A DNA stretch of 64,000 nt from Escherichia coli (GTDB lineage: Bacteria > Pseudomonadota > Gammaproteobacteria > Enterobacterales > Enterobacteriaceae), in assembly GCF_003334405.1 (NCBI RefSeq), contig NZ_QOWM01000001.1. One strand, 5' to 3'. Below are positions 22,341 to 38,844 of this stretch, piece by piece. The notes beneath the pieces were generated by a model that saw only the letters and a list, made by a program, of their open reading frames with translations, had not been told where the DNA came from and made no database searches. Position 1 is the stretch's first letter. Every line of letters begins with the position of its first letter. Position numbers and translations under genes: made by a program.

Positions 22341-23924
22341 TCACACCTCGTACTTCAACTCGCCATCCTTATGCAGCGGAATAATCTGCACCTTCTGCAC
22401 GCGATGGCTTTCCACCTGCAACGTTTTAAGCAAATAATCCCCCACCTGAACTTCTTCGCCAGGTTTTGGAATACGCTGTAAATATTCCATCAACAGCCCG
22501 GCAATGGTGTGATATTCACGTTTTTCATCCAGCGGCAGCGGCACATATTGCACCAGATCTTCCAGCGGCATATGACCATTCGCCGTCCAGGAACCGTCCG
22601 CATTCTTCTGAATATCATGGCGGGCGTCGATCTCTTCCACTTCGTTCGGTAAGTTACCGGCAATGGTTTCAGTGACGTCACTTAATGTCACAATCCCTTC
22701 CACCGAGCCAAACTCATCCACCACAAAAGCAAAGTGTGTGCGGGCATTACGGAACTGCTCCAGGGCAGGTAACAACGGCAAGGTTTCCGGGAACACCAGC
22801 GGCTGGCGAATCAACACCCGCAGGTTGAGCGGTTCGCCGCGCAGTGACTGTTGTAGCAGGTCGATAACGTGAACAACACCGAGCAAATCTTCTGCGTCAT
22901 CACCGTCGGTAACCACCAGCCGCGTATGCTGATTTCGCTCCAGCAACTGGCGGATTTCTTCTTCCGGCGCGTTGAGATCGATATGCTCAATATCGTGGCG
23001 CGACGTCATAATGCTGCTGACAGTACGCTGGTTAAGATTAAGTACCCGCTCAATCATCCGCCGTTCCTGCGGATTAAAGATCTGCTGGTTACCATGATCG
23101 ACCAGCATGGACGCGGTTTCGGCGTCCAGTTCCGCATCTTCTTTTTGCCCGCTAAGCAGGCGCATTACCGCTTCGGTAGTCCGCTGGCGTAGCGTCTGGT
23201 TAGCGGAAAGAAAACGTCGCCGGTTAAAGATAGCCAACTGATTGAGCGCCTCGATCATCACCGAGAAACCAATGGCAGCGTACAGGTAGCCTTTCGGAAT
23301 GACGAAGCCGAAACCTTCTGCCACCAGGCTAAAGCCAATCATCAACAGGAAGCTTAAGCAGAGAATAACGATGGTCGGGTGGCTATTAACGAACTGGGTT
23401 AACGGCTTGCTGGCCATCAACATCAGGCTGATAGCGATAACCACGGCGGCCATCATGACCAGTAAATGGTCGACCATCCCGACGGCGGTAATCACTGAGT
23501 CGAGTGAGAAAATGGCGTCCAGCACCACAATTTGCGTCACCACGCCCCAGAACTTCGCACCTTTGCGTTGTGTGGGATTATTGCTGTCTTTCCCTTCCAG
23601 CCGTTCGTTCAGCTCCATCGTGGCTTTGAACAACAGGAAGAAACCACCAAACAGCATGATTAAGTCGCGGGCGCTAAAGGTAAACGAGCGGAAGCTGAAC
23701 AGCGGTTGAGTCAGGGTGACCAGCCAGGAGATTGACGCCAGCAGTAACAGGCGCATTAACATCGCCAGCAGCAGCCCGGTAACCCGTGCGCGGTCGCGCT
23801 GCTTCGGCGGTAGTTTTTCGGCGAGGATGGCAATAAAGACCAGGTTATCAATGCCGAGGACCAGTTCGATCACAATCAGCGTGATTAACCCGGCCCAGAT
23901 AGACGGATCGGCAATCCATTCCAT
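22341..23924 (-). CDS. yegH: TerC-family integral membrane protein with CBS and CorC/HlyC C-terminal domains
   Basis: ORF track 549 aa; trimmed to ATG (complement 23922-23924), [34 protein letters not shown] (TerC-like), giving 527 aa as recalled for YegH. Confidence 0.85.
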
Positions 23925-24085
23925 AGTAAGTACAAAACCTATTCGTTGTATGACAAATGTCACAATTCGATCATGGATAAATCGGGGCAAAAATGCAATG
24001 TTGCAGCACTATTTATCTCATATTATTTGAGGGTAATAACCTTACATTATCCCTGAATTAAAAGTAGTAATAATAAAACATTATT

Positions 24086-24099
24086 TAAGAAATATCGCA
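24086..24099 (+). promoter_or_regulatory. Candidate RcsAB box in the wza (cps) promoter region
   Basis: TAAGAAATATCGCA resembles the RcsAB box consensus TaAGaatatTCctA (from memory); lies in a visibly AT-rich 650-bp leader upstream of wza. Confidence 0.3.
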
Positions 24100-24392
24100 T
24101 GTGGAGACGCAATATTAAATATTGTCAACCTAAAGAAACTCCTAAAAACCATATTGAATGACACTTAATATAATTCTTAAAAATAGCCAATTGCCGAATT
24201 GTTACCTTGCCTGCTATTCCGTTAGCTGTAACACTTCCTCCTGCATTATTGGAGAGCCAATATTCAATTACCATAATGTCACCTTATATTCGGAAGTTAA
24301 TTTCCGCAATAACCCTTTCTCATCAACAATTGTATGCAGAGAGGGTTTGAAAAATTAAGCTAAATCAGTGTATTGGTAGCTAAAAAGCCAGG

Positions 24393-24404
24393 GGCGGTAG
24401 CGTG
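24393..24404 (+). promoter_or_regulatory. ops element (RfaH recruitment) within a JUMPstart sequence in the wza leader
   Basis: Exact GGCGGTAGCGTG within cagtgtattggtagctaaaaagccaggggcggtagcgtg, about 180 nt upstream of wza. Confidence 0.85.
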
Positions 24405-24582
24405 TCTGGATGCCTGAAAGACCAGTCTGAATTATTCTGTCAATAGCCTGCGGATGAAATCAATTTTTTTAGGACTGATGCCAGTTAAATTTTTATTCAA
24501 TTAACTGCAAGGTAAATGTGCATGGCGACATTGCTATTAATAGTGCACAGGATAATTACTCTGCCAAAGTGATAAATAAACA

Positions 24583-25722
24583 ATGATGAAATCCAAAATG
24601 AAATTGATGCCATTATTGGTGTCAGTAACCTTGATAAGCGGTTGCACAGTACTTCCGGGCAGCAATATGTCGACGATGGGCAAAGACGTCATCAAACAGC
24701 AGGACGCTGATTTCGATCTCGACAAAATGGTGAATGTTTATCCGCTGACCCCGCGCCTGATTGACCAATTACGCCCACGCCCGAATGTAGCGCGCCCCAA
24801 TATGACGCTGGAAAGCGAGATCGCGAATTACCAGTATCGCGTCGGGCCGGGGGACGTTCTTAATGTCACCGTCTGGGATCACCCGGAACTCACCACGCCA
24901 GCCGGTCAGTACCGCAGTTCCAGCGACACCGGCAACTGGGTACAGCCTGACGGCACTATGTTTTACCCGTATATCGGCAAGGTTCACGTAGTTGGGAAAA
25001 CGCTCGCTGAAATCCGCAGTGATATTACCGGGCGCTTAGCGACGTACATCGCTGACCCGCAGGTGGACGTTAATATCGCCGCCTTCCGCTCACAAAAGGC
25101 CTATATCTCCGGACAGGTGAATAAATCCGGCCAACAGGCGATCACCAACGTGCCACTGACCATTCTCGACGCCATCAACGCCGCAGGTGGCCTGACCGAC
25201 ACCGCTGACTGGCGCAACGTGGTGTTAACACACAATGGTCGTGAAGAACGCATTTCTTTGCAGGCGCTGATGCAAAACGGCGACCTCAATCAGAACCGAC
25301 TGCTTTACCCCGGCGATATTCTCTATGTGCCGCGTAATGATGATCTGAAAGTATTTGTGATGGGTGAAGTGAAGAAACAGAGCACCCTGAAAATGGACTT
25401 TAGCGGCATGACCCTGACTGAAGCTCTGGGCAATGCCGAAGGTATCGACATGACCACCTCCAACGCCAGCGGCATCTTTGTCATTCGTCCGCTGAAAGGC
25501 GAGGGCGGGCGTAACGGCAAGATTGCCAATATCTACCAGCTGGATATGTCCGATGCGACGTCGCTGGTGATGGCGACAGAATTCCGCCTGCAACCTTATG
25601 ACGTGGTGTATGTCACCACCGCCCCGGTTTCCCGCTGGAACCGTCTGATCAATCAGTTGCTGCCAACTATTAGCGGTGTCCGTTACATGACGGATACAGC
25701 CAGCGACATTCATAACTGGTAA
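24583..25722 (+). CDS. wza: Outer-membrane polysaccharide export lipoprotein Wza
   Basis: 379-aa ORF, lipoprotein signal (LISGCTV); first gene of the colanic acid cluster. Confidence 0.95.
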
Positions 25723-38743: not shown

Positions 38744-38844
38744 CAGTTGAATAATCAACCGGAATAAATCTCCGGCAAATAACGACAAAAACAAAATTGG
38801 CCGTTTCGGTCAGGGCCAACTATTGCCTGAAAAAGGGTAACGAC

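Follow-up and report, generated by a model that had tools for sequence, protein, structure and literature searches.

Activation of the colanic acid (cps/wca) operon of Escherichia coli by RcsA and RcsB is textbook knowledge from the literature. Upstream of wza, with which the operon begins, the cps promoter is described as containing an RcsAB box in addition to -10 and -35 sites (PMC2478693). The published RcsAB consensus is TaAGaatatTCcta, with capitals for the conserved bases, as quoted in PMC4325325. The box of the RcsB homodimer is TN(G/A)GAN4TC(T/C)NA (PMC7913699). One of the closest described promoters is that of E. coli rcsA. There, AT-rich DNA that is bound by H-NS carries the RcsAB boxes, at about 170 bp upstream of the start (PMC11879457). 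We analyzed the corresponding DNA of wza in a stretch of 64,000 nucleotides from E. coli, referred to here as the window. The segment of interest is the intergenic region between the divergent genes yegH and wza. It spans 23925-24582 and contains 658 bp of noncoding DNA.

This segment is the known control region of the colanic acid operon, so that much is established biology. We read it as regulatory DNA of the operon that is shared with yegH, and we put the probability of this reading at about 0.85. It would combine silencing by H-NS, an RcsAB operator, a weak sigma-70 promoter, and a leader with a JUMPstart/ops (operon polarity suppressor) element. The G+C content is 0.343 in the segment and 0.487 in the whole window (34% versus 49%). 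In 200-bp windows it is 0.28 to 0.39 within the intergenic region, with a minimum of 27.5%, versus 0.50 to 0.58 in the flanking genes. The original prediction had described an AT-rich noncoding region of about 650 bp between yegH and wza, and its coordinates, gene names, and composition are correct. The annotated start codon of yegH is the ATG at 23922-23924 on the minus strand. By megablast, 4819 of the 5426 complete genomes of E. coli contain the segment, and the identity is at least 95% in nearly all of these. The closest match was an O157:H7 chromosome, with 99.7%. In RefSeq, the matching E. coli genomes are annotated yegH, wza, wzb, and wzc at this place.

The comparison set contained 80 wza loci from the Enterobacteriaceae, with one genome per species. 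By tblastn, yegH adjoins wza in divergent orientation in 76 of the 80 species. The alignment contained 77 intergenic regions including that of the window, and the 76 others amount to 52 kb in total. The block identities given here are mean column identities to the window sequence in this alignment.

The proposed operator for the RcsA-RcsB heterodimer is TAAGAAATATCGCA at 24086-24099, here called Box 1. It agrees with the consensus TaAGaatatTCctA at all capital positions (T1, A3, G4, T10, C11, and A14) and at 9 of 14 positions overall. No other 14-mer within 23925-24582 has all of the conserved consensus positions. The pattern TNRGAN4TCNNA lies 36 to 38 bp upstream of a conserved TGTCAA motif (24123-24128 in the window) in 53 of the 76 species, and the sequence in between is variable. 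Outside its two fixed places, Box 1 and a second one described below, this pattern has 3 matches in the 52 kb of intergenic DNA, both strands included. The mean identity is 0.74 in Box 1 and 0.34 to 0.40 in the 20 to 30 bp on either side. Species variants of the box read TAAGA, TAGGA, or TCGGA, then A or T, AT, A or T, and TCGCA. These variants differ where the RcsB consensus is degenerate. The exact 14-mer is also found in O157, a K-12 derivative, E. whittamii, two Silvania species, Enterobacter soli, and two Citrobacter-like genomes. Because the register is fixed, the box forms a conserved island, and the pattern is nearly absent from the rest of the 52 kb, the alignment gives strong evidence that Box 1 is a functional Rcs-type operator. 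The resemblance to an RcsAB box that the original prediction had noticed is thus well founded, and its further suggestion that Rcs activates the region is supported by the known dependence of the cps operon on Rcs and RcsA (PMC2478693).

A literature text search found neither the 14-mer nor its neighboring strings printed in any searchable paper. The wza site is said to be among those from which the RcsAB consensus was built by Wehland and Bernhard in 2000. The wza box of that work was reportedly bound by RcsA with RcsB, and mutation of conserved bases reportedly abolished induction. We infer that TAAGAAATATCGCA is the box that was mutated there, because it alone in the region fits the consensus.

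A strict Rcs-type pattern also occurs at a second fixed place, here called Box 2, in 37 of the 76 species. Both boxes are present in 26 species. Box 2, which lies about 95 bp or more upstream of Box 1, was found in Enterobacter, Lelliottia, Kosakonia, Phytobacter, Trabulsiella, Cedecea, and Franconibacter. Examples are loci L028, L035, L045, and L055 (Enterobacter and Lelliottia), L017, L047, and L063 (Phytobacter and Kosakonia), and L067 (Trabulsiella). In many cases it is a palindrome, TGAGATTTCTCTTA, or repeats Box 1 nearly unchanged in inverted orientation, with TAAGATAAATCGCA on the minus strand. Only one half of Box 2 is left in Escherichia, Citrobacter, and Salmonella.

Downstream of Box 1 lies a 65-bp conserved module (24122-24184) in fixed register with Box 1 and the -35 element. 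It contains two blocks, modules A and B, with a gap of 17 to 18 bp of variable sequence between them. Module A was matched in 76 of the 77 intergenic regions, window included. It holds an RcsAB-like 14-mer, TAAAGAAACTCCTA (24131-24144). Module B holds another, TAATATAATTCTTA (24166-24179), and also a perfect TATAAT (24169-24174) that is an alternative -10 element. Both 14-mers lack the G at position 4, and both have the same orientation as Box 1. Each is among the 19 best consensus scores over about 128,000 window positions. By their sequence, they could be extra RcsB half-sites, sites of another protein, or a promoter with TATAAT and its own activator site.

The candidate cps promoter lies downstream of the module. 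Of the 76 regions, 70 have the same -35 hexamer, TTGCCT. All 76 have a spacer of exactly 17 bp, whose sequence is variable. The extended -10 motif TGn (24227-24229) is likewise present in 76 of 76, and the -10 hexamer is AACAAT in 70 of 76 and AACACT in E. coli. Such a pattern, in which the hexamers and the spacer length are fixed but the spacer sequence is not, is characteristic of sigma-70 promoters. The signature is a reasonably probable wza core promoter, with a predicted start near 24243. The predicted 5' untranslated region is then about 340 nt, and it is 325 to 366 nt in most species. The match to the promoter consensus is 7 of 12 in E. coli. It was missed by a consensus promoter scan, which gave no useful candidate in the region. 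The center of Box 1 would be near -150 with this start and near -89 with a start at 24181.

For wza, RegulonDB (cited in PMC9764084) gives a sigma-70 promoter (Stout) and a predicted sigma-E promoter. The paper from which the sigma-E promoter comes left its colanic acid predictions unvalidated. We looked for a sigma-E promoter of the form GGAACTT-N16-TCnaA and rejected it. The sole GAAACT-like stretch, at 24134-24139, is not conserved in other genera.

Several findings weigh against Box 1 as the operator. The pattern TNAGN5TCNNA has 20 matches in the window versus 23.4 expected, which is no excess. A consensus-weighted scan of about 128,000 window positions places Box 1 among the top 19, and two further 14-mers within the same 100 bp score equally well. 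A near-copy (13 of 14) lies in the coding sequence of ugd at 61735. Position 12 is G in nearly all species, in contrast to c in the consensus and a pyrimidine (Y) in the RcsB homodimer box. A strict Box 1 is absent from this place in 23 of the 76 species, some of which have a shifted box, a box shorter by 1 bp, or Box 2 alone. As the motif statistics are at chance level, the box cannot be validated from the window by itself. These counts could be explained if the 14-mer matched by chance in AT-rich DNA and Rcs acted elsewhere in the region. A chance match would not be expected to hold one register in 53 species, to stand out from its flanks in identity, or to be so rare in the other intergenic DNA, and we regard it as highly improbable. 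An RcsB homodimer might occupy the box instead, as might RcsB paired with BglJ, GadE, or MatA. Several such partners exist, and Box 1 fits the homodimer consensus with one mismatch. That mismatch is the position 12 departure in the right half, TCGCA, and cps/wza is a classical RcsA-dependent target. Sequence alone cannot separate RcsA-RcsB from other forms of RcsB, and we consider these forms very unlikely here. It is also unlikely, if less so, that the Rcs-type boxes serve yegH along with or in place of wza. In genera with two boxes, Box 2 is inverted relative to Box 1 and faces yegH as Box 1 faces wza. Against this, the register of Box 1 is fixed with the module and promoter on the wza side, Box 2 is degenerate in E. 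coli, and we found no evidence that yegH is Rcs regulated.

Two candidate -10 elements, AACACT and TATAAT, are present, and the start is predicted only, which also counts against our reading. The core promoter may possibly be TATAAT at 24169-24174, with a start near 24181 and a leader of about 400 nt. Module A would then be a class II-type activator site near -41 and Box 1 would lie near -89, and TTGCCT/AACACT would be a second promoter or something else. In favor of this, E. coli has the perfect hexamer, both modules are conserved on either side of a gap of variable sequence, and TAAAGAAACTCCTA would center at about -41.5. However, most other genera have TATTAA or TATTAT in its place, position 6 of TATTAA not being T, and no -35 element accompanies it. 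The conservation there is continuous over 19 bp, more like a protein-binding site than a -10 element. We prefer TTGCCT/AACACT, since all 76 regions show conserved hexamers at an invariant distance with a spacer of variable sequence. Both promoters may fire. The remaining alternative is that one of the small open reading frames (ORFs) in the segment is a real gene. The candidates are 24158..24358 (plus strand, 66 amino acids) and 24125..24274 (minus strand, 49 amino acids). The latter is annotated by the Prokaryotic Genome Annotation Pipeline (PGAP) as a hypothetical protein, WP_162829205.1, in many E. coli genomes; PGAP omits it in K-12. Both ORFs have an internal stop in a K-12 derivative, and stops within the small ORFs also occur in other Escherichia. 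Outside Escherichia, they align only as short pieces, and these pieces are the conserved promoter blocks. A third ORF, 24537..24725 (minus strand, 62 amino acids), is antisense over the wza start and owes its conservation to wza. A real gene among them is extremely unlikely, as the original prediction had said of 24158..24358 and 24537..24725. The annotated 49-amino-acid protein is probably a widely propagated false gene call that is present in thousands of genomes.

The wza leader contains the JUMPstart/ops element that had been predicted downstream in the region. JUMPstart was found at full length by Rfam, and no other Rfam family had a match in 23925-24582 at an E value of 1 or lower. The ops octamer GGCGGTAG (24393-24400) reads in the sense direction of wza. 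It follows both candidate start sites and precedes the ATG by 183 nt. It is kept in 72 of 76 intergenic regions. The stretch between the promoter and JUMPstart (24250-24345) is poorly conserved, with an identity of 0.31. A second JUMPstart (58.8 bits) lies at the front of the O-antigen cluster, at 48526-48564 on the plus strand, with ops at 48553. The two are 93% identical over 30 nt. The octamer has 6 copies in the window versus 1.5 expected, and of these only 24393 and 48553 are in leaders. One of the others lies inside yegH (23806-23813, plus strand), on the strand opposite to yegH transcription.

Three conserved blocks follow ops in the leader, and they rank among the best conserved stretches of the intergenic region. 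The second, TTTTTAGGACTGATGCCAGTTAAATTT, has a U-run and then a small 5-bp hairpin (24473-24477/24482-24486), which is a weakly supported alifold prediction. The third, CACAGGATAATTACTCTGCCAAAGTGATAAATAAACA, is the 37 nt directly before the wza ATG and the most conserved block of the region. It is presumed to be a translation-initiation or regulatory region. It does not contain a strong Shine-Dalgarno sequence, and the first genes under RfaH typically lack one. The block is kept with wza where yegH is missing (L073 and L074) and where JUMPstart is missing (L036, L037, and L040). L073 is a second wza copy in Kosakonia oryziphila, and L074 is from a Buttiauxella metagenome-assembled genome. In both, wza lies away from yegH and the leader from JUMPstart to the ATG is about 70% identical over 230 nt. 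L073 does not contain the upstream Rcs module. The leader thus travels with wza into other genomic contexts. L036, L037, and L040 are from Pseudescherichia vulneris and relatives. Their intergenic regions are about 475 bp, with JUMPstart/ops deleted, and they retain the RcsAB box, the promoter signature, and the block before the ATG. These loci are a natural test case for RfaH-independent expression of cps.

Structural candidates in the leader were tried and rejected. An RNAalifold helix (24430-24440/24547-24557, with ops/24558-24565) has uncompensated breaks in the Citrobacter freundii group, Cedecea, and Pseudescherichia, and its 3' partner is invariant. A hairpin after ops (CAUGCC..GGCAUG in some genera) is weak in E. 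coli, and its changes are one-sided. The global fold of the leader showed no excess stability over shuffled sequences (z = -0.66). We also rejected the idea that the leader blocks are common to both JUMPstart leaders in the window, which share JUMPstart alone. According to the literature, the colanic acid phenotype is enhanced when IS1 has inserted between JUMPstart and the wza ATG. This fits a negative role of the stretch after JUMPstart, and an outward IS1 promoter explains it equally well.

H-NS covers the region upstream of wza in E. coli CFT073 (PMC9765446). The sigma-70 peak there appears only in cells that lack both hns and stpA, and those cells gave a chromatin immunoprecipitation (ChIP) signal for RfaH at wza ops (PMC9765446). 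These published data favor a role of both H-NS and RfaH. The high-affinity H-NS motif (TCGATAAATT-like) has only two matches in the region, at 23974 and 24347, each with 2 mismatches. It is not enriched within the window (96 versus 84 expected). The lack of a good nucleation motif counts against our reading, and the H-NS claim therefore rests on AT-richness and published ChIP. On that footing, the suggestion in the original prediction that H-NS silences the region is supported. Deletion of hns raises the colanic acid titer of K-12, an effect that may run through rcsA.

We propose that the operon is controlled in four layers. In the first, which is published, H-NS and StpA on the AT-rich DNA would block initiation. 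In the second, the Rcs phosphorelay would be active and RcsA stable, and the heterodimer of RcsA and phosphorylated RcsB at Box 1 would turn on the weak sigma-70 promoter. A multiprotein upstream complex may form, possibly with further RcsB half-sites (TCCTA at 24140 and TCTTA at 24175). Such a complex is suggested because the distances from Box 1 to the conserved module and to the promoter are fixed. In the third layer, initiation would most likely use TTGCCT-17 bp-TGn-AACACT, near 24243, with TATAAT near 24181 as the alternative. In the fourth, the leader of about 340 nt would be transcribed, RNA polymerase would pause at ops within JUMPstart, and RfaH would load. RfaH would then carry transcription across the operon of about 20 kb against Rho and H-NS. 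RfaH also aids ribosome recruitment, here to a gene that has no strong Shine-Dalgarno sequence. It is possible, although less likely than not, that the module is a multisite Rcs nucleoprotein array or the site of a coregulator, that the leader blocks after ops are a control element that acts after initiation, or both. Neither has been described. An effect of the leader blocks would be in line with the published IS1 insertion.

The side of the segment next to yegH appears to have control elements of its own. The perfect palindrome TGACA-AA-TGTCA lies 27 to 38 bp upstream of the yegH ATG. The comparison among genera shows conserved half-sites and a variable center. The block around it (23950-23981) has a mean identity of 0.82. 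It looks like a candidate operator for a dimeric yegH regulator, separate from the control of wza. A putative sigma-70 promoter for yegH overlaps this block. It matches the consensus at 8 of 12 positions, under the threshold of the scan tool. Its hexamer blocks, GATCATGG and AAATGCAATG, are conserved across genera, and the spacer is variable. With a conserved palindrome and a yegH promoter, the left third of the segment would belong to yegH. The segment had been called a leader as a whole. That label holds for the approximately 340 nt that are predicted to be transcribed. It does not hold for the remainder, which is upstream activating DNA and the divergent yegH promoter. The features are listed in Table 1.

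Table 1. Features of the yegH-wza intergenic region and its flanking genes (window coordinates)
Feature	Coordinates	Strand	Basis or score
yegH coding sequence (TerC-family membrane protein), divergent left neighbor	22341..23924	-	RefSeq annotation of identical DNA
Palindrome TGACA-AA-TGTCA	23951..23962		Direct reading
Putative yegH sigma-70 promoter: -35 TTGCAT 23993-23998, 17-bp spacer, -10 CATGAT 23970-23975	23970..23998	-	Inference
Degenerate Box 2 remnant CACTATTTATCTCA	24007..24020		Alignment column of Box 2 in other genera
Box 1 TAAGAAATATCGCA, proposed RcsA-RcsB operator	24086..24099	+	Consensus match and comparative footprint
Module A TTGTCAAcctAAAGAAACTCCTAAAA (TTGTCAA..TCCTAAAA)	24122..24147	+	Mean identity 0.79
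Module B CTTAATATAATTCTTAAAAA	24164..24183	+	Mean identity 0.81
Candidate cps promoter: -35 TTGCCT 24207-24212, 17-bp spacer, TG 24227-24228, -10 AACACT 24230-24235	24207..24235	+	Alignment
JUMPstart, wza leader	24366..24404	+	Rfam RF01707, 57.3 bits (gathering score 35), E = 6e-12, full length 1-38
ops GGCGGTAGCGTG, nontemplate strand, RfaH loading site	24393..24404	+	Sequence match
Leader block AATTATTCTGTCAAT	24430..24444	+	Mean identity 0.88
Leader block TTTTTAGGACTGATGCCAGTTAAATTT, U-run then small hairpin	24466..24492	+	Mean identity 0.90
Block CACAGGATAATTACTCTGCCAAAGTGATAAATAAACA before the wza ATG	24546..24582	+	Mean identity 0.93
wza, first gene of the colanic acid operon (then wzb, wzc, and the rest)	24583..25722	+	ORF list and RefSeq annotation

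Three observations were made elsewhere in the window. The near-copy of Box 1 in ugd (61352..62518) is TAAGAAATATCGTA, at 61735-61748 on the plus strand, and it keeps all of the conserved positions. It is probably due to chance or to codon constraint. In Salmonella, ugd is Rcs regulated. An Rfam algC RNA motif (78 bits) lies inside the colanic acid cluster at 38791-38840 on the plus strand, where it presumably precedes the phosphomannomutase gene. At 7810-8615 on the minus strand are three tandem Sib antitoxin RNAs (Rfam SIB_RNA, 138 to 150 bits each).

Among the exopolysaccharides of E. coli that Rcs controls, colanic acid is the principal one, and work on Rcs envelope stress signaling uses its promoter as the standard reporter. 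Confirmation of the box, of JUMPstart, and of the noncoding nature of the region offers specialists nothing new. The comparative map of the core promoter and start, the module of fixed geometry, the second box, and the leader blocks may be modestly useful for cps engineering. Experiments might be worthwhile only on the conserved module and the leader blocks.

Compared with the RcsAB boxes of other enterobacterial exopolysaccharide promoters, such as TAAGATTATTCTCA of Klebsiella pneumoniae galF P1, the wza box has the same asymmetric 14-bp core (T1, A3/G4, T10/C11, and A14). Like boxes of the galF P1 type, it lies far upstream of a capsule operon that depends on Rcs and RcsA. It differs in its right half, which is TCGCA rather than the TCcTA of the RcsAB consensus type. 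The E. coli box is solitary, whereas many genera add an inverted box about 95 bp further upstream. The rcsA promoter is similar in that a distant RcsAB site lies in AT-rich, H-NS-bound DNA (curved at rcsA) and activation overcomes silencing. It has two RcsAB boxes, whereas wza has one intact box and degenerate relatives. It also does not have a long RfaH-dependent leader such as that of wza. In this last respect, wza resembles rfb, rfa, hly, and kps. Like their JUMPstart/ops leaders, that of wza is long and contains a full-length Rfam JUMPstart with ops on the nontemplate strand. Its conserved blocks after ops are not shared with the rfb leader in the window.

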